Positions 4,007-57,766 of a DNA stretch of 64,000 nt are shown here, piece after piece (within the stretch, counting starts at the first letter, position 1; each line of letters opens with the position of its first letter). The notes under the pieces were generated by a model. It had not been told where the DNA came from, did not search any database, and worked only from the letters and a program-made list of their open reading frames with translations. The stretch covers positions 54,884-118,883 of the forward strand of contig JAITQO010000006.1 in assembly GCA_031288835.1 (NCBI GenBank), in the 5' to 3' direction. The translations under genes were made by a program, and so were the position numbers. This DNA is from Rickettsiales bacterium (GTDB lineage: Bacteria; Pseudomonadota; Alphaproteobacteria; Rs-D84).

Positions 4007-4795
4007 ATGAAAAAACAAAAATTTCCAATCTTGGAATTCGACCAGGGACGGGACGCCGTCATCGACCCGCGCAAAATAATCCGAAAAATCCGCGGGATGC
4101 CGGAATACTGCGTTCTTTGCTTTTTTGACGAGGCTATTAAAAAACTGGTCAAAAAATATCCGCACGAAACCGTGTCGTATTTCAAGTCGGACGGCGGCAT
4201 TAAGAAACCGATTTACAAGGTCAAGGTCGGAAATAAAAACGTATGCCTGACGGCCGCCTTGCTGGGAGGCCCGTTCGCCGTCGGACAAATAGAGGAAATA
4301 AGCGCGATGGGGTGCAAAAAGTTTCTGGCCGTCGGGTCGTGCGGCGTGATAGACAAGGAGCACCAATACGGAAAACTGATAATACCGGCGGTCGCGGTCA
4401 GGGACGAAGGCGCCAGTTATCACTACGTGAAGCCGTCCCGCGAAATCAGTATGAGCGGGCGCATAGTCGAATCGATAGAAAAATATTTCATCAAAAACAA
4501 ACTTCCGTATATCAAGGGAAAAACCTGGACGACGGACGCGCTCTATCGCGAGACAAAGGACAAAATCGCCCTTCGTAAATCCGATGGATGCGTATCTGTC
4601 GACATGGAATGCGCGAGCTATCTGGCCGCGGCGCGATACAACAACGTTTCGTTCGGACAGATTCTGTATGCCGCCGATTGCATCGGCGGGGCGGAATGGA
4701 ACGACAGGAAAAGGCGCGAAACAAAGGCGAACGTGCTGCGCACGAGATACGAGCTGTCGGAGCACGCGCTGAAAATCGTACAACAATTCCGGTGA
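4007..4795 (+). CDS. nucleoside phosphorylase family protein (PNP_UDP_1-like)
   Basis: GSCG...IPAVAVRDEG...VDMECASY pattern typical of uridine/purine nucleoside phosphorylase and MTA nucleosidase folds. Confidence 0.5.
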   Translation: MKKQKFPILEFDQGRDAVIDPRKIIRKIRGMPEYCVLCFFDEAIKKLVKKYPHETVSYFKSDGGIKKPIYKVKVGNKNVCLTAALLGGPFAVGQIEEISAMGCKKFLAVGSCGVIDKEHQYGKLIIPAVAVRDEGASYHYVKPSREISMSGRIVESIEKYFIKNKLPYIKGKTWTTDALYRETKDKIALRKSDGCVSVDMECASYLAAARYNNVSFGQILYAADCIGGAEWNDRKRRETKANVLRTRYELSEHALKIVQQFR

Positions 4796-11112: not shown

Positions 11113-11605
11113 CTATTTATTGCCACGCAAAATCAAATCGCCATTGTTTATCATAATATCGGCAAAACTTCCAGGGATTGGATTTTTTGCCGATTCCGTC
11201 TTGTAGGCCGTTTTTTGAAAAAACGCCCCATCCGTAACGCGATTGAACGTTTCTTTGTCAAACGGCCTGTCCGCATAGCGCCACCATAACTGGTGCGTCG
11301 CGTCCCGCGCGATATGCGGAACGTTCATAAAATCCCCCGTAATTGTGCAAAAGCTCGACCCGCGCTATGTCGGCAAAATGGGCGGGTCTCATATCGCCGC
11401 CTTTATATTTGTCCCAAACAAACCCCGGTAGCTCTATATAATCGGATAAAGTGTTTTCGTCAAGCAATATCAGTTGTCGGCGGCAGTTGCCGCGAATGCT
11501 GCGCAGACAGGCCCTGACCAATGGCGGAGCGTTTTCTTCGCCCTGAAGCCAAAATGAATTGCAAATAAAAAGGCAAATATAAATCATAATCAAAATATAC
11601 GGCAT
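11113..11605 (-). pseudogene. GT32-family (DXD) glycosyltransferase, frameshifted
   Basis: The N-terminal ORF has the LLDENT DXD region and the FADIARVELLHNYGGFY motif. The reading frame switches near 11290-11330 into a second overlapping ORF (HQLWWRYADRP...). Confidence 0.4.
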
Positions 11606-11621
11606 CGCCCCGCGGCATATT

Positions 11622-11853
11622 TTTTCATTTCACTTTCGCCTTGCCGCGTGTTATGATAGCCGCGTATCCGAAAGGAACCGAGAACCAAAAAGTCTCGTAA
11701 CCAGTGCGCTTGGATAGGCGCATAAACTTCTATCCCGCCAATGGCGGGATTGCGCCGGTTATATATTGAAGACCGGTGCGGTCGTCTGGTTACGGCCTTT
11801 TTGGAATCCCGCCACCTTTTGGTACATGCAACAAACAACCAAAAGGTGGAAAA
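11622..11853 (+). ncRNA. conserved structured 5' leader / cis-regulatory RNA (copy 1), class unassigned
   Basis: About 75% nt identity to 57205..57436. Compensatory changes in two stems: CGUAACCAG/CUGGUUACG versus CGUAGCAAG/CUUGCUACG, and GCGC/GCGC versus GUGUG/CACAC. Conserved hairpin AUCCCGC..GCGGGAU. A CCACCUUUUGG/CCAAAAGGUGG stem sequesters the SD. Confidence 0.45.
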
Positions 11854-12183
11854 ATGGCTCAAGATACGGATAATTTTGCAAGGAAGGTGCTGGACAAATA
11901 CCTGCGGCACATTGTCGACGACGTATTCATGGCGATACGGACGGACGACGATACGCGGAACGACTTTATGAATCTGGCCGCGACAAGGGCGCGCGAATTG
12001 GGCACCGCGGGTCATGAAATGGCGGACGAGCTGCACAAGGACATAAAGGCGTCGATAAAGAAGTTATTGGACTTGGACGACGTCAGGATAAACAGGCATC
12101 CGGAATCGCGCATGGTGGACAGTTATATGGAGCACAAATTGAAGGAACGCCCGGCGTCGAAATCGGCGTATCTAATCGAATAG
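11854..12183 (+). CDS. small conserved hypothetical protein (~109 aa), paralog of 57437..57766
   Basis: SD AAGGTGG 7 nt upstream. Starts MAQDTDNFARK. Shares the IVDDVF, KDIK.S.K.LL and RHPES blocks with the paralog. Confidence 0.5.
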   Translation: MAQDTDNFARKVLDKYLRHIVDDVFMAIRTDDDTRNDFMNLAATRARELGTAGHEMADELHKDIKASIKKLLDLDDVRINRHPESRMVDSYMEHKLKERPASKSAYLIE

Positions 12184-31245: not shown

Positions 31246-31631
31246 GAATGACAAATGTAAAAAGCGGCGGGAATGACAAATGTGAAAAGATAGGAGAATG
31301 CCAAGCGTATTTCACTGCCGTTCGAGCAAAGTTTTTGTTTGCAGGACTGAAAATCCCATTCCCGCCGGAGTTTACCCCCGCAGAAAGCGGAGGCGGGAAT
31401 GACAAAGAGAAGCCGCTCATCCACCAACCATTCTGAAGTTCGCGACCTTCGGCGCGATTTCGGAATGACGGAGAGAAGAGTTGCGCCATGCGGCGGCGCA
31501 ACGGAATGGCGGCGCCTTTGTCAATATCTTACCTCATCACCTGTCGTTTTCCGGTCCCTTTTCCTCCGTCCCTCGTCCTTTTTTCCCCTTGCCCATATTC
31601 GCCTCTTTGATATAATGGCGCCGACAGACAA

Positions 31632-32670: not shown

Positions 32671-32733
32671 GTTTTTCGCTTGCAATCAAAAAACGAATCG
32701 TCTAGAATGCCGATAATAATCAAAGGGAATACC

Positions 32734-33495
32734 ATGGCAAAAGTAATCGCATTCGCAAATCAAAAGGGCGGGGTGGGAAAAACAACGACCGCAATCAATA
32801 TCGGCGCGTCGCTCGCCGCGGTGAAAAAGTCGGTTCTTTTGGTGGATTTGGACCCGCAGGGAAACGCCGGAACGGGACTCGGGTTTGTGCGCGGCAGCAC
32901 GCGGCAATCGATTTATCCGGTGATTATGGGGCTTGAACGCGCGGCGGAAAACATACTGACGACATCAGTGAAAGGCATGCACATCATCCCGTCGACGCAG
33001 CAATTGTCGGGCGCCGAGGTCGAGCTGCTGGACGAGGATAACCGCGAAAGCCGCCTTAAAACGGCGCTGGGCGCCCTTCGCGATTCCTATGATTACATAC
33101 TGATTGACTGCCCGCCGGCGATGGGCTATCTCACCATAAACGCGCTGGTTGCCGCGGATTTCCTGATTGTCCCCCTTCAGTGCGAGTTTCTCGCGCTCGA
33201 AGGACTCAGCCAGCTGATGAAGTCCGTGGACGCAATCCGGAAACGCTGGAACCCGGATTTGGCGCTGATGGGAATATTGCTGACAATGTATGACAAGCGC
33301 AACAACCTGTCCCGGGCAATCGAGGACGATGTTCGAAAAAATTACAAAACGGCCGTGTTTCAGACGGTCATACCGCGTAACGTCCGGGCGTCCGAAGCGC
33401 CCAGCCACGGCAAACCGATTCTGTTCTACGACTTCAACTCGATTACGGCGCAGCAGTATCTGAAGCTTGCGACCGAGGTTGTGGAAAAGGAATAG
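32734..33495 (+). CDS. parA: chromosome partitioning ATPase ParA/Soj
   Basis: Deviant Walker A KGGVGKTTT. 253 aa. Confidence 0.9.
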   Translation: MAKVIAFANQKGGVGKTTTAINIGASLAAVKKSVLLVDLDPQGNAGTGLGFVRGSTRQSIYPVIMGLERAAENILTTSVKGMHIIPSTQQLSGAEVELLDEDNRESRLKTALGALRDSYDYILIDCPPAMGYLTINALVAADFLIVPLQCEFLALEGLSQLMKSVDAIRKRWNPDLALMGILLTMYDKRNNLSRAIEDDVRKNYKTAVFQTVIPRNVRASEAPSHGKPILFYDFNSITAQQYLKLATEVVEKE

Positions 33496-33497
33496 GG

Positions 33498-33541
33498 CTT
33501 ATTTCACATGAAATAAAAAACCTTATTTCATGTGAAATAAG
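33498..33541. promoter_or_regulatory. two adjacent parS-like palindromes between parA and parB
   Basis: CTTATTTCACATGAAATAA at 33498. CTTATTTCATGTGAAATAAG at 33522. Confidence 0.55.
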
Positions 33542-33728
33542 GGCAACCAAAAGGAAGAAAAATGGCAAAACAAAAGAACAAGCCCGAGACAATTATCAAC
33601 CTGCCGGTTTTGCAGCGGCAGGGGCGCGTCTTCGGACTCAGCAATGCATTTGAAGCGCTTGAACGGAAACGGCGTTCAAGGCAATGCAAAACCATTATCA
33701 AAAGAAACCAAACCCAAAGGGGGCTCTG

Positions 33729-34634
33729 ATGGCAAAATTCGGACTTGGAAAAGGATTGGCGGATTTGGAGACCGAGGCCGGGGCGTCGCCGGAAATCGCG
33801 GCCCTGTCCGGAATGCCGGAACGGGTGGTGGTGCGGCCGATTCCCATCGCGCAAATCGGGGCGAATCCTGACCAGCCGAGGAAAACGTTCTCGGCAGACG
33901 AGCTGGAGGACTTGGCGCAATCGATTCGCGAGCACGGGGTGCTTCAGCCGATTATCGTCCGCACGGTGACGGGCATGCCGCATCTTTACGAAATCGTGGC
34001 GGGCGAGCGCCGCTGGCGGGCGTCCCAAATCGCCGGCAAGGAGACAATTCCGGCGCTGGTAAAGCCGATTTCCCAGGAATCCGCGATGGAAATCGCGTTG
34101 ATTGAAAACGTCCAGCGCGAAAACCTGAACGCAATCGAGGAGTGCGACGCGTATAAGAATATAATGAACAAATGCGGATACGCATTGCCGGATTTAAGCG
34201 CTCTGATTGGAAAATCGGAATCGTATATCCGGAACATCATGCGGCTGTCGTCCCTGCCGGAAAAGGTGAAGATGATGGTGAAATCCGGGGATATTAGCGC
34301 CAGCCATGCGAGGACGCTGGCGGTATCGGAAAACGCCGAGGAATTGGCGCGGAAAATAATGGATGAAGAATTGTCCGTCGCCCAGGCCGCGCAGCTGGTG
34401 AAATCGGGGCCGAGGGCGAAAACGGCGAAACGCAAGGCGCCGGCCAGATACGGCTATCCGCCGGAACTGCTGCGCGGGGCGGAGGAACGGCTGGAAAAAT
34501 CGCTGGACATAAAGGCGAAAATATCCGTCCGAATCAACGGCGCCGGAAGCATGACGCTGTATTTTAAGGACAAGGAAACATTGGAGCTTTTGATTGAATT
34601 GCTGGCAAAGCGGGGCAAAAACCCGGGGGCGTGA
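33729..34634 (+). CDS. parB: chromosome partitioning protein ParB/Spo0J
   Basis: ParB box GERRWRA. HTH region. Begins MAKFGLGKGL. Confidence 0.85.
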   Translation: MAKFGLGKGLADLETEAGASPEIAALSGMPERVVVRPIPIAQIGANPDQPRKTFSADELEDLAQSIREHGVLQPIIVRTVTGMPHLYEIVAGERRWRASQIAGKETIPALVKPISQESAMEIALIENVQRENLNAIEECDAYKNIMNKCGYALPDLSALIGKSESYIRNIMRLSSLPEKVKMMVKSGDISASHARTLAVSENAEELARKIMDEELSVAQAAQLVKSGPRAKTAKRKAPARYGYPPELLRGAEERLEKSLDIKAKISVRINGAGSMTLYFKDKETLELLIELLAKRGKNPGA

Positions 34635-47253: not shown

Positions 47254-48203
47254 CGGCGTCGGGATTCGTGCTTTTGGACAAGCCGGAGGGCATAACCAGC
47301 AGGCGGGCGGGCGCCAGGGTCGCGCGGCTCTTCGGCGCGAAAACCTTCGGGCATATCGGCACGCTCGACCCCATGGCGTCGGGGCTTTTGGTCATAGCGC
47401 TGGACGAGGCGACGAAAATGATTCCGTTCCTGGAGGGACAAGGGACGAGGGACGAGGGAAAGGAATATCTCTTTTCCATAAAATGGGGAATCAGGACGGA
47501 TACGGGGGATATCACGGGAAAGATTTCGGAACGGAACGATTCCGTTCCGGAGGAGGCGGAGGTTTTGAAAATACTGCCGGAACTGGTCGGGGAATACGAG
47601 CAGACGCCGCCCGCGTTTTCGGCGAAAAAAATCGGGGGCAAGCCCGCTTACGTCCTTGCGAGAAAAGGATTGGAACCGATATTGCGGCCGAAGAAAATAC
47701 ATGTTTTCGAATTGGAGGCGCTTCGCGCCCGAAACCCGCCCGACGCGCCCGGCGGATTCGCGCTACGCGTCAAATGCTCGCCCGGAACGTATGTCAGGGC
47801 GCTGGCTCAAGATATCGTTTCCGCCGTCAACCGGCGTTCGAAATTCGGGCCGCTGCTTGGAACCTGCGACATGATTCGACGCATAAAAACAAACGGATTC
47901 GACATAAAAGACGGACGCGCCCTTGATTTTTTGGAAAAATTATTTAATAATGGCGAAACGGCGCCGGGCGATTGCCTGATGCCGCCTGATTTCGGGCTGG
48001 ACGGCATTCCGGTCATGAAGTTGGAGCCAAAGGACGCGGAGCTGTTCCGGCACGGCGGATTCGTAAAATCGGAGCCGGCGATTCGCAACGGAGGATTCGT
48101 CCGCATATATTCCGACAGTCGATTCATCGGAATCGGGGAAATAGAGCGGGGCGTCCTGAAACCAAAGCGCGTGCTTTGCGAAAGGCATGCGGAAAACGAC
48201 TGA
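47250..48203 (+). CDS. truB: tRNA pseudouridine(55) synthase
   Basis: GFVLLDKPEGITS and GHIGTLDPMASGLLVIA catalytic Asp motif. Start overlaps the ABC stop. Confidence 0.8.
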   Translation: MTASGFVLLDKPEGITSRRAGARVARLFGAKTFGHIGTLDPMASGLLVIALDEATKMIPFLEGQGTRDEGKEYLFSIKWGIRTDTGDITGKISERNDSVPEEAEVLKILPELVGEYEQTPPAFSAKKIGGKPAYVLARKGLEPILRPKKIHVFELEALRARNPPDAPGGFALRVKCSPGTYVRALAQDIVSAVNRRSKFGPLLGTCDMIRRIKTNGFDIKDGRALDFLEKLFNNGETAPGDCLMPPDFGLDGIPVMKLEPKDAELFRHGGFVKSEPAIRNGGFVRIYSDSRFIGIGEIERGVLKPKRVLCERHAEND

Positions 48204-50781: not shown

Positions 50782-50904
50782 CAATGGGAAAATGGACGGG
50801 GGACAAATAGAAAGCAATAAAATTGCGGTATATCGCAAAATAAATATTTTCAGTTCCTTGTCCCACGTCCCTTTTCCCTTGTCCCCTAACAAAAGGAGCG
50901 GGGC

Positions 50905-51231: not shown

Positions 51232-51307
51232 GGGCGTTTAACTCAGTTGGCAGAGTGTTTGCTTTACATGCAAAATGTCGGGGGTTCGAGTCCCTCAACG
51301 CCCACCA
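51232..51307 (+). tRNA. tRNA-Val (anticodon UAC), CCA encoded
   Basis: Acceptor stem GGGCGTT/AACGCCC. Anticodon stem TTTGC/GCAAA with loop TTTACAT. T-arm GGGGGTTCGAGTCCCTC. 3' ACCA. Confidence 0.85.
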
Positions 51308-51661
51308 AAATGCGACCGCCGCGAAACGCGATATGAAACGAGGATGTGCGGTTTTCCATGCGCTATCGGCAATCGAATCTATATCATACTTCACTTGTCG
51401 CATATCACGCATTATATGCCCCATATCGATTTTTTCTTTGATTTTTTCATGATTTGACTTATAATGCGGGCGACGCGGGCGTGTTGCCTGCGTTGAGGCT
51501 TCAAAACCTTTCCGATGGTGTCCATTGCGGACAAGAGCTCCTGCCGCGGCGGGAGGGCGATGGAATATTTGGAATACATCGCGCAATTCATCGGATTGTT
51601 TTGAACCTCCTGCCACCAATTGAAAACTTGGTGGTTTTTATTAACGCGCGAGGGGGCGTCC

Positions 51662-52231
51662 ATGAGAAAATCGCTGCTGTCGATTTATCTCTTTATATTT
51701 GCGGCCTACGATTCATCCGCGGCGGTGCTGTGCCACGTTCCCAACGGCTTTGCGTGCCCCATAATCGCGAATATGTCGACGGACGGCGGCGGCTACGCTT
51801 CAGGCGGCGGCGGAATCGAAGACACATGGAGCTCGAGCGGGCCGTGGGGCGGCGGCGGCTCGTCGATAGTGATTAACGGATTTTCGCGATGTTCCGACGC
51901 AAGCGGCTCGCCTCTGAGCACGGGCGCTCCCGCGGCCGGCGGCGGGTTAAATTGCTGGTGCCAAATGGTGGTGGATAACGACGTCTTGGGCGCGTGGGTA
52001 TTCATGCAAGAAAGCACCTATACGGGCTGCGCCGCAAACTGCTCGTCCGTCTGCGCGATCAATTTCAGTTATTACTCGCTCGCTCGCTCCGCAATCTGCT
52101 CCCCATCGCCTCATTGCAGCGGCATGGCGGAGATTAAGGACGGCGATTGTCCCGCCGGATACGCGCAATGCGTCGGAACCAAAACCGGCGACGACGACAA
52201 AGGCCGGTATACTATAACCTGCGAAGAATGA
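51662..52231 (+). CDS. secreted Gly/Cys-rich protein
   Basis: Signal peptide MRKSLLSIYLFIFAAYDSSAA. GGGG runs. Nine Cys. C-terminal ...CPAGYAQCVGTKTG...YTITCEE resembles the 62413..62607 product. Confidence 0.45.
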   Translation: MRKSLLSIYLFIFAAYDSSAAVLCHVPNGFACPIIANMSTDGGGYASGGGGIEDTWSSSGPWGGGGSSIVINGFSRCSDASGSPLSTGAPAAGGGLNCWCQMVVDNDVLGAWVFMQESTYTGCAANCSSVCAINFSYYSLARSAICSPSPHCSGMAEIKDGDCPAGYAQCVGTKTGDDDKGRYTITCEE

Positions 52232-56992: not shown

Positions 56993-57204
56993 GGCGCGGC
57001 GGGCAATCAGCCCCCGTCATTCCGTTGCAGTGCCGAATGGCGCCGACAACGGAAGCCAGATAATATTGTCGCGCGCAAAGCACGGGCCTTATTCATCTGG
57101 ATTCCGGCGTTCCAGCCCTGCGGCGGGCCGCCGGAATGACGAATTATAAGTCACTTTGTCAATACATCACTCTACAGTCTCTTTTCCCTCGTCCCTCGTC
57201 CCTA

Positions 57205-57436
57205 ATTTTTCATTTCACTTTCGCTTCGCTGCGTGTTATGATTAACGCGTATCCGAAGGGAGCCGAGACTTGAAATATCTCGTAGCAAGTGTGTAGGATA
57301 TGCACACAAAATAGTATCCCGCACAGGGCGGGATTGCATCTGCCATATATTGAAAACAGGTGCGATCGTCTTGCTACGATTGTTTCAAAATCCCGCCACC
57401 TTTTGGACACACAACAAACAACCAAAAGGTGGAAAA
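57205..57436 (+). ncRNA. conserved structured 5' leader / cis-regulatory RNA (copy 2)
   Basis: See copy 1. Identical 5' start TTTTTCATTTCACTTTCGC, identical SD-sequestering hairpin and identical 3' end ...CAAACAACCAAAAGGTGGAAAAATG. Confidence 0.45.
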
Positions 57437-57766
57437 ATGGCAAAAAATACCGATGAATTCGCAAGAAAAATAGTAAACAGATACATTATCAGGAATATTG
57501 TCGACGACGTGTTCCTGGCGATTCAGTCCAACGACGACGCCATGGAGGATTACTTGGACTTGATAGAAAGCAGGATATTGGAATCCAAGGCCGGAAGCAG
57601 GAAGGCGGGGGCCGGCCTGCGCAAAGACATAAAGACATCCGTAAAAAACCTGCTGGGTCTCGAAAGTATAGGGACGAACAGGCATCCGGAATCGCATCTG
57701 ATAGAGAGCTATGTCGAGCACAGGCTGAAAAAACGCCGGGATTCGCGGAACGACGCGACGGAATGA
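57437..57766 (+). CDS. small conserved hypothetical protein, paralog of 11854..12183
   Basis: MAKNTDEFARKIV...IVDDVFLAI...RKDIKTSVKNLLGLE...NRHPESHLIESYVEHRLKKR. Confidence 0.5.
   Translation: MAKNTDEFARKIVNRYIIRNIVDDVFLAIQSNDDAMEDYLDLIESRILESKAGSRKAGAGLRKDIKTSVKNLLGLESIGTNRHPESHLIESYVEHRLKKRRDSRNDATE

Follow-up and report, generated by a model that had tools for sequence, protein, structure and literature searches.

The 64,000-nucleotide stretch of contig JAITQO010000006.1 from a Rickettsiales bacterium that was analysed here (the window) carries two copies of a structured RNA leader, copy A (11622-11853) and copy B (57205-57436), each ending where a small protein gene begins. The gene behind copy A (ORF A, LBT45_01090, 11854..12183) encodes a 109-aa member of an uncharacterised small-protein family and that behind copy B (ORF B, LBT45_01310, 57437..57766) encodes a protein, also of 109 aa, which is 45% identical to it. 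All features described below lie on the forward strand unless the reverse strand is stated. The two leaders are 78.6% identical (184 of 234 aligned columns) and the open reading frames (ORFs) are 62.9% identical at the DNA level, while the flanks (200 nt upstream, 150 nt downstream) are ~49% identical, which is the random level. An earlier note on this DNA had put the identity of the leaders at ~75%, above the ~45% of the proteins, and the measured values bear this out. Within the 64-kb window, blastn returned A and B as the only close copies (E = 2e-59).

Both regions open with TTTTTCATTTCACTTTCGC and close with CAAACAACCAAAAGGTGGAAAAATG, and both contain the hairpin ATCCCGC(N5)GCGGGAT (11732-11750 in A, 57316-57334 in B) and a Shine-Dalgarno (SD) stem CCACCTTTTGG / CCAAAAGGTGG (11812-11822 / 11839-11849 in A; 57396-57406 / 57422-57432 in B). 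A long-range pair of CGTAACCAG (11696-11704) with CTGGTTACG (11786-11794) in copy A becomes CGTAGCAAG (57281-57289) with CTTGCTACG (57370-57378) in copy B, and a local hairpin around GGATA changes from GCGC..GCGC in A to GTGTG..CACAC in B. All the motifs quoted in the earlier note were found again by reading the sequence, positions included, and the compensatory changes it had pointed out in the long-range pair and the GCGC stem are present in A and B and hold with added homologues. Folded jointly with RNAalifold, the two copies are predicted to contain 10 compensatory pairs.

The first ~40 nt of each region (11622-11663 in A, 57205-57248 in B) are conserved promoter DNA. The promoter scan detected a -35-like TTCACT, a 17-nt spacer and a TG-extended -10 element TATGAT in copy A (11629..11657), and TTCACT-17 nt-TATGAT with an upstream TG in copy B (57214..57242); hexamers and spacing are identical in L018, a copy on a related contig. 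In the remaining family members the upstream sequence differs, and inspection shows a separate -10-like box in each of them, 7-12 nt ahead of P0, the first hairpin. The conserved promoter is of the sigma-70 type and, because -10-like boxes sit just upstream of P0 in all copies, we infer that transcription starts near 11664 in A and 57249 in B, which would give a leader RNA of ~190 nt. The earlier description of a ~235-nt leader holds as regards a structured leader, whereas its first ~40 nt are promoter and most likely lie outside the RNA. The 5'-most helix drawn by RNAalifold is probably spurious, since its bases are promoter DNA.

Covariation was scored in a model-based alignment of seven full-length copies, in which the lowest-energy pairing set (Fold I) comprises P0, P1a/P1b, P2, P3 and P4. 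In copy A, the putative 5' untranslated region of ~190 nt (11664..11853) scores 179.6 and 151.2 bits with the two covariance models R1 and R2 introduced below. P0, at the 5' end of the RNA, is a mini-hairpin UCC-GAAA-GGA (11667..11676), paired in 100% of cells and changed on both sides at 2 of 3 pairs. It is followed by the 5' strands of the long-range closing helix P1 (11685..11704), namely P1a CCAAAAAG (11685-11692) and P1b CGUAACCAG (11696-11704), which pair with 11786-11804; 16 of the 18 P1 pairs are changed on both sides among the seven copies, and RNAalifold finds P1 independently. P1 closes a junction of three hairpins: P2 (UGCGC..GCGCA, 11705..11722), with a conserved GGAUA loop, 5/5 compensatory pairs and 100% pairing; P3 (11732..11751, helix 4 of the covariation alignment), in which segment 1 (seg1, AUCCCGCC, 11732-11739) pairs with segment 2 (seg2, GGCGGGAUU, 11743-11751); and P4 (11751..11780), with the conserved loop AUAUAUUGAA and 5/8 compensatory pairs. 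The 3' strands of P1 lie within 11780..11804 (P1b CUGGUUACG, 11786-11794; P1a CUUUUUGG, 11797-11804). Segment 3 (seg3, AAUCCCGCC, 11805..11813) is unpaired in the lowest-energy fold, and its last two bases in copy A are the first two of the anti-SD stem. The leader ends in a hairpin (11812..11849, -18.0 kcal/mol) made of an anti-SD strand CCACCUUUUGG (11812-11822), a CA-rich loop and the SD strand CCAAAAGGUGG (11839-11849). Copy B (leader RNA 57249..57436) has the same layout, with P0 at 57252-57261, P1 at 57270-57289 with 57370-57388, seg1 at 57316-57322, seg2 at 57327-57335, seg3 at 57389-57397 and the SD hairpin at 57396-57406 with 57422-57432. The SD stems are perfect 11-12 bp helices (-18.0 and -16.4 kcal/mol in A and B), and on the predicted structures this hairpin is what hides the ribosome-binding site (RBS) of the small gene in both copies, in support of the earlier suggestion that a hairpin at the 3' end of a 5' leader sequesters the SD sequence.

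The minimum free energy (MFE) is -96.7 kcal/mol for copy A and -86.5 kcal/mol for copy B, against means of -63.4 and -53.8 for dinucleotide shuffles (z = -7.4 and -7.7, with 0/200 shuffles folding as well), and z is -8.6 for the sister copy L001. On plain MAFFT alignments, RNAalifold recovers P0, P1, P3, P4 and the SD hairpin without any covariance-model input. In Fold I the paired fraction of cells is 96.1% (72.4% in shuffles), compensatory changes on both sides are seen at 31 of 42 pairs, and the covariation score is 0.703, compared to 0.07-0.134 when partners are slid by 1-3 columns; none of 500 shuffles reaches the observed values. Judged by these comparisons, the leader is real and under strong structural selection, as the earlier note had proposed for A and B.

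The leader is also not confined to A and B. Model R1 was built from A, B and L018 with the Fold I structure, and R2 is a second model whose seed includes copy C. The search of related contigs with a covariance model, a check that the earlier note had outlined, returned further copies together with their downstream genes. Beyond A and B there are seven, of which one (copy C) lies in the window and six lie on related Rickettsiales contigs; the family as a whole has 10 members, nine seen and one inferred from the third LBT45 paralog (LBT45_03985), and comes from two related Rickettsiales metagenome-assembled genomes (MAGs) and two metagenome contigs. With filters off, R2 finds exactly three copies in the window. 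Covariance-model matches on the reverse strand at the same loci (~20-27 bits) were rejected as the mirror image of the hairpins, not separate elements.

Copy C (51483..51614) is a divergent member, detected by R1 at 26.7 bits (E = 2e-5) and by R2 at 89.2 bits, the latter not independent since copy C is in the R2 seed. A promoter-like site TTGATT-16 nt-TATAAT (51438..51465) was read by eye and not scored by the promoter scan. P1b pairs CCGAUG with CAUCGG, and seg1, seg2 and seg3 are CUCCUGCC, GGCGGGAGG and CCUCCUGCC. In sequence and MFE fold, the core runs into a terminator-like hairpin CCACCAA-N8-UUGGUGG followed by UUUUU (51613..51639), the first two bases of which are the last two of seg3. 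The ORF behind it (51662..52231) encodes a Cys/Gly-rich protein of 189 aa with a predicted signal peptide, which matches no Pfam family and is unrelated to ORFs A and B.

Among the copies outside the window, L018 is a full leader of the A/B type in which the long-range helix is changed again (CGUACACAG/CUGUGUACG). L001 and L019 share the core with longer P2 and P4 and, in place of the anti-SD stem, have a terminator-like GACCGCCAAU..AUUGGCGGUC followed by UUUGAUUU, plus a second hairpin. A pattern scan run on metagenome contigs added L024, a leader of the A type that follows ruvC; the ORF behind it is a different gene, encoding a signal-peptide protein. Contig L001 holds two more: a divergent copy at 4326-4473 (R1, 27 bits) upstream of a GT8 glycosyltransferase gene, and one at 1974-2103 (R2, 19.7 bits) upstream of a PAP2 phosphatase gene, followed by GACCACCA..UGGUGGUC and U6. 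A relative-locus search with four sequences against genome contigs gave only an irrelevant partial Halobacillus match, one with seven sequences against metagenome contigs gave no match, and a pattern scan of viral contigs for the leader gave no match either.

Two kinds of expression platform therefore abut the same core. An SD-masking hairpin is found in A, B, L018 and L024, and a terminator-like hairpin with a U-run in copy C, L019 and the three L001 copies (L001-1063, L001-4326 and L001-1974); across copies, seg3 overlaps the platform stem by 2-4 nt. The downstream genes are unrelated and encode small proteins with a HIVDDVF motif, two signal-peptide proteins, the GT8 glycosyltransferase and the PAP2 phosphatase. 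The earlier view of a duplication ahead of paralogous small proteins is thus accurate for A and B, but the element is a multi-copy family that also precedes unrelated genes and has two platform kinds. On balance, we lean towards a family of cis-acting leaders that is restricted to one lineage and uses either platform.

The small proteins of ORFs A and B match no Pfam, NCBIfam or PADLOC family. A HMMER search with both paralogs recovered a family of 83-98-aa proteins, and a word-indexed profile search gave 198 members, mostly from Bacteroidota, Calditrichota, Fibrobacterota and spirochaete metagenomes; the HIVDDVF-motif subfamily has 7 members among 5.8 billion proteins (3 in the LBT45 MAG, 3 in a second Rickettsiales MAG, LBL21, assembly GCA_031263745.1, and 1 in a JGI metagenome). 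Counted over the two MAGs and one metagenome contig, members of this subfamily have a leader ahead of them in five cases; in a sixth, the gene L017 at the edge of a contig, what remains of the leader is its platform end. The confident AlphaFold model of ORF A (pLDDT 88) comprises four helices and a beta-hairpin and matches no solved fold. Relatives in other phyla (L002-L015) lie 10-70 nt behind other genes in operons resembling defence islands and have no long leader. These relatives are 85-90 aa long and often occur as tandem pairs; the genes upstream of them include HsdM-HsdS, an AAA_15/AAA_21 ATPase with a 429-aa protein, and a type ISP restriction-modification enzyme with a 452-aa protein, and two relatives show weak matches to the Pfam family CTD12 of ABC-3C systems (E ~0.005).

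At the Rfam gathering threshold, the whole window yields tRNA only. A permissive cmscan gave a single consistent match, of the 3' half of the leader to the small RNA (sRNA) family sRNA-Xcc1 (RF02221), spanning model positions 1-87 every time and scoring 28.0 bits in A, 26.9 in B, 28.4 in L018, 47.9 in L001 and 46.9 in L019. None of the leader copies scored reaches the gathering score of 53 bits. The earlier label of an unassigned leader accordingly stands by the Rfam cutoff, and is qualified by these full-length sub-threshold matches; the cmscan that the earlier note had put forward as a check does point to a known family, below its gathering score. The leaders contain the sRNA-Xcc1 three-way junction and CaCC tail, though this is not the full-length MFE structure. 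P4 is H2 of the sRNA-Xcc1 model and aligns to the first inner hairpin of RF02221, while the H2 inner motif AAUACAAUACCCGaAAGGGGAA is absent from A and B, where H2 is a short hairpin with the loop AUAUAUUGAA and the inner hairpin of the model is deleted; it is partly present in L001 and L019. The mobile-element setting (integron cassette, transposon, plasmid or prophage) was not found for the leaders, the neighbours of which are housekeeping genes. Going by scores and shape, the leaders are clearly, if distantly, related to sRNA-Xcc1 and yet fall outside that family by the Rfam criterion.

sRNA-Xcc1 is described in publications as a trans-acting sRNA. To our knowledge its mechanism has never been established, and the family occurs in many proteobacterial mobile elements. 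We compared the leaders with four bona fide sRNA-Xcc1 loci (L020-L023; 69-73 bits). A same-strand ORF (KilA-N/ORF6N-like, BRO or hypothetical) lies downstream in 4/4 loci, at a distance of 38-46 nt in three and ~250 nt in the Neisseria locus L020. The region of the third hairpin (H3) has an exact 6-8 nt complement 86-94 nt upstream in 4/4 loci, and a 7-11 nt complement at the RBS or start codon in 3/4. The observed lengths are reached by 0-362 of 2000 shuffles for the upstream and 0-37 of 2000 for the RBS complements. The 6-mer of L020 is at chance level (362/2000). Where a 7-8 nt upstream and a 7-11 nt RBS complement occur together, as in three loci, the figure is 0-96/2000. RNAduplex comparisons of the whole H3 with the flanks of the canonical loci were not significant except in L023. 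The MFE folds of these loci use either the upstream or the RBS partner of H3. This small sample suggests that sRNA-Xcc1 RNAs in general may act in cis on the gene behind them. In addition, L021 and L022 share a conserved hairpin followed by U7 ~45 nt upstream of sRNA-Xcc1.

Published descriptions of the family agree in placing it ahead of a gene, which is symE in integron cassettes of Xanthomonas (bioRxiv 10.1101/2025.06.18.660453) and an ORF6N gene in APSE phages (bioRxiv 10.1101/2020.03.17.996009). The Xanthomonas RNA was identified as a discrete 88-nt species by Northern blot and rapid amplification of cDNA ends (PMC2996969), and Rfam matches to sRNA-Xcc1, IsrK and c4 alternate in one Xylella tandem array (PMC12189769, Table 4).

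The leaders can be drawn in two ways. In Fold I, of lowest energy, P1 closes the junction of P2, P3 and P4, seg1 pairs with seg2 as P3, and P1b pairs 11696-11704 with the loop and 3' strand of H3. In Fold II, the sRNA-Xcc1-type three-way junction, seg2 (11743-11751) serves instead as the 5' strand of H1 and pairs with seg3 (11805-11813) around H2 (= P4) and H3, the latter being in the cmscan alignment of copy A a local hairpin at 11780-11797 (GGUCGU-CUGGUU-ACGGCC). The two folds exclude each other because seg2 and the H3 region are used in both. H1 is 90.5% paired across the alignment with 3/9 pairs changed on both sides, and H2 and H3 are 95.7% and 82.9% paired. The three segments seg1/seg2/seg3 change together in five versions: AUCCCGCC/GGCGGGAU/AUCCCGCC; CCCGAC/GUCGGG/CCCGAC; CUCCUGCC/GGCGGGAG/CUCCUGCC; CUCCUGC/GCAGGAG/CUCCUGCC; and GUCCCGGCC/GGUCGGGAU/CUCCCGACC. 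Fold I leaves seg3 without a partner, and H1 is needed to account for the co-variation of seg3 with seg2. Covariation supports both folds. In full-length RNAs, Fold I is favoured over H1-enforced Fold II by 7-21 kcal/mol, while an RNA beginning at seg2 takes the sRNA-Xcc1 shape in 4/5 copies tested. In L001, Fold II cuts the terminator stem from 10 to 6 bp.

We favour, by a modest leaning, the reading that the element is a default-OFF, bistable cis-regulatory leader with two alternative folds. Its order would be a constitutive-looking promoter of its own, a structured core of ~150 nt, an abutting expression platform and the gene. By default the RNA would adopt Fold I with seg3 free and the platform hairpin fully formed, such that translation would be silent in A and B and transcription would terminate in copies of the terminator type. 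A trigger, if one exists, would favour the sRNA-Xcc1-like junction, or would remove or occupy the 5' extension; seg3 would then be drawn into H1, the platform hairpin would weaken and expression would rise.

Several observations weigh against this reading. The covariation alignment was fitted to Fold I by a covariance model itself built on Fold I, and it holds only seven sequences from 2-4 genomes, some of the changes in which are inherited and not independent. The overlap of H1 with the anti-SD stem is two bases only in A and B, where the H1-enforced fold keeps an SD hairpin of 9-10 bp; going by predicted energies alone, the SD sequence of these copies would stay covered in Fold II. Fold II is also predicted to be the less stable by 7-21 kcal/mol and would form later in transcription, hence a strong effector would be required. 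The transcription start, termination and any processing are all deduced from the DNA, and the downstream genes have no obvious common function that points to a ligand.

One alternative is a static leader that does not switch, with Fold I and the SD hairpin as the sole functional structure acting as a constitutive translation damper, an mRNA stabiliser or both for genes whose level has to stay low, and the likeness to sRNA-Xcc1 a matter of ancestry. In its favour, all full-length copies have Fold I as their MFE structure with a margin of 7-21 kcal/mol, the SD hairpin is without mismatch and very stable (-16 to -18 kcal/mol), and in A and B it is hardly opened by Fold II. Against it, seg3, though unpaired in Fold I, scarcely varies inside a subtype, and from one subtype to the next its changes go with those of seg2; it is also hard to see the point of a terminator that separates a strong promoter from its gene unless there is a bypass. 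We consider a static leader unlikely, while still according it some weight.

The sRNA-Xcc1-like domain could alternatively be cut out of the transcript in the manner of c4 or IsrK, for instance by RNase P, leaving a ~90-nt RNA that base-pairs with its own or sister transcripts. H1 with its RCCA tail mimics the acceptor end of a tRNA, and ACCA, GCCA or ACC is present in most copies; the RNA starting at seg2 takes the sRNA-Xcc1 shape; the Xanthomonas sRNA-Xcc1 is a discrete 88-nt RNA (PMC2996969); Xcc1, IsrK and c4 alternate in the Xylella array (PMC12189769); and the canonical H3 has complements upstream (4/4, with L020 at chance) and at the RBS (3/4). However, leaders A and B have no match to c4 (RF01695) or IsrK (RF01394) at E <= 10, and none was found on the sister loci at E <= 1. 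By inspection the H3 loop of the leaders has its upstream partner, P1b, and no RBS complement was seen; as P1b differs in every copy, the pairing looks intramolecular. Cleavage by RNase P would moreover require Fold II, the less favoured fold of the precursor, and the co-transcriptional terminator platforms would be left unexplained. We regard processing of this type as improbable.

Little credence is given to a protein-responsive leader, in which the HIVDDVF protein would autoregulate at A and B and cross-regulate the other leader genes. The five leader copies and the L017 remnant ahead of this family, and a leader more conserved than the ORF, are in its favour. The leader also precedes four unrelated genes, though, so that autoregulation by the small protein, one of the earlier suggestions, is unlikely as the sole logic; the relatives in other phyla have no long leader, and the predicted protein fold matches no known RNA-binding fold. 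Finally, a recent unconstrained duplication, a DNA repeat or mobile element, or the thermosensor entertained in the earlier note is very improbable and already largely refuted by covariation: the units are multi-copy, intergenic and beside palindromic repeats, but substitutions are concentrated in compensatory pairs (31/42) while flank identity falls to ~49%, no terminal repeats or transposase were seen, and the SD stem, a perfect 11-12 bp at -16 to -18 kcal/mol, is unlike the weak mismatched stems of known RNA thermometers. Taken together, the earlier observation is confirmed and its interpretation partly supported.

Two further candidates were tried and rejected. Leader-peptide attenuation was set aside because copy A, which has ACC at the position in question, lacks a start codon. 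The candidate start is UUG in B, GUG in L018 and CUG in L024, no leader peptide is conserved, and the stop codon of the candidate peptide falls, by inspection, in the P2 loop upstream of seg1. A role of P0 as an 'anti-anti-SD' element, in which CCGAAAGG could pair with CCUUUUGG, was discarded since P0 is also conserved where the platform has no CCUUUUGG.

With regard to genomic surroundings, copy A is flanked by a capsule-synthesis fragment and an outer membrane protein gene, copy B by accC and recF, copy C by a tRNA gene, and the sister copies by rpsA, dcd, ruvC and ileS. The fragment upstream of copy A is an ORF on the reverse strand (11258-11605) that covers positions 53-128 of the 278-position Caps_synth profile (PF05704, E = 3.5e-26) and may be a gene fragment or pseudogene. 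The tRNA gene (51232-51304, 69.2 bits; anticodon loop UAC, probably tRNA-Val) lies ~150 nt upstream of copy C. A short repeat of the CCCTCGTCCCTCGTCCCT type occurs at 57185-57204, just upstream of the copy B promoter, and by blastn also at 47434-47464, 31554-31578 and 50851-50885; related TCGTGGT/TCGTGAT runs flank L001 and L018. A long palindromic repeat at 624-785 of L001 matches Rfam WsnRNA46 (Wolbachia sRNA 46) at 46.9 bits, the gathering score being 65.3, and the motif GCCCTGCGGCGGGCCGCCGGAATGACG is common to L001 (~800-830) and the window (~57108-57141, upstream of copy B). The palindromic repeat of L001 and the window is probably an element resembling repetitive extragenic palindromes that is common to these Rickettsiales.

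Elsewhere in the window, two parS-like palindromes (TTATTTCACATGAAATAA and TTATTTCATGTGAAATAAG) are located at 33498-33545 between parA (32680-33495) and parB (33684-34634). A short ORF between the same two genes (33544-33700) has a leader-like initiation context CAACCAAAAGGAAGAAAAATGGCAAAA and a 27-nt blastn match to copy B, with neither anti-SD sequence nor leader. Because this ORF has the SD context without either of them, the context looks like a genome-wide preference.

We know of hardly any cis-regulatory RNAs in the Rickettsiales, which have few transcription factors. One promoter-leader cassette reused before at least five kinds of gene, and with both outputs, has the signature of a general regulatory device. 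The leaders and the four canonical loci also give a testable handle on sRNA-Xcc1: the third hairpin of that RNA seems to find its pairing partners within the same transcript, and leaders and canonical loci together suggest action in cis. We put forward tentatively, as a possibility to which we would give less than even weight, the wider proposal that the leaders represent a new bistable riboswitch- or attenuator-like class built on the sRNA-Xcc1 junction, in which some cellular signal (a small molecule, protein, RNA or RNase) would choose between the fold locked by the 5' extension and the junction fold. In Rickettsiales, both the termination and the translation of genes for small proteins and envelope-related functions would be controlled in this way. 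The widespread sRNA-Xcc1 found on integrons, plasmids and prophages, so far called 'trans-acting', would then in fact be the central part of a cis-leader that controls the ORF behind it.

Among known systems, the arrangement recalls attenuators of the trp/his type, in that three consecutive segments are complementary (1:2, 2:3 and 3:4), the platform continues from segment 3 and the default 1:2 plus 3:4 pairing would be OFF; it differs in that what lies between leader segments 2 and 3 is an entire three-way junction and not a simple loop. As in riboswitches, a conserved, covarying multi-helix core lies upstream of genes, and one core is joined to either a terminator or an SD platform that shares a strand of the closing helix. 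In contrast to riboswitches, the downstream genes have no common metabolic theme and do not form a coherent set, the family is known from one narrow lineage and has no known ligand, and the competing structure is a large 5' extension instead of a short anti-terminator.

The c4 RNA of phage P1 is co-transcribed upstream of the gene it controls, has the shape of an RNase P-like substrate and pairs via a1/b1 and a2/b2 sites, and the partner logic of the canonical H3 is alike. The leaders resemble c4/immI of phages P1 and P7 (RF01695, c4-a1b1) and IsrK in being small structured RNAs co-transcribed upstream of the controlled gene, and c4/immI further in having complementary upstream sites (a1/b1) in the same transcript and a closing stem with a CCA-like tail that resembles an RNase P substrate. 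They differ from c4/immI in that no complementarity of their loop to the RBS was seen by inspection, and in that no antirepressor gene lies downstream.

The closest likeness in Rfam is to sRNA-Xcc1, with which the leaders share the closing stem H1 around two hairpins followed by a 3' CaCC tail, the position upstream of a same-strand ORF, and an H3 region with an upstream complement (P1b in the leaders). They differ from it in that A and B lack the conserved H2 insert AAUACAAUACCCGAAAGGGGAA, and in that the leaders are chromosomal, among Rickettsiales housekeeping genes, with downstream genes other than SymE, KilA-N or BRO. The leaders further add a 5' extension of ~80 nt (P0, the P1 5' strands, P2 and seg1) that out-competes the Xcc1 fold, and a scan of the canonical loci with R2 gave no match to this extension. 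What is new with respect to sRNA-Xcc1 is hence this 5' extension together with the expression platforms, neither of which has been described for that family.

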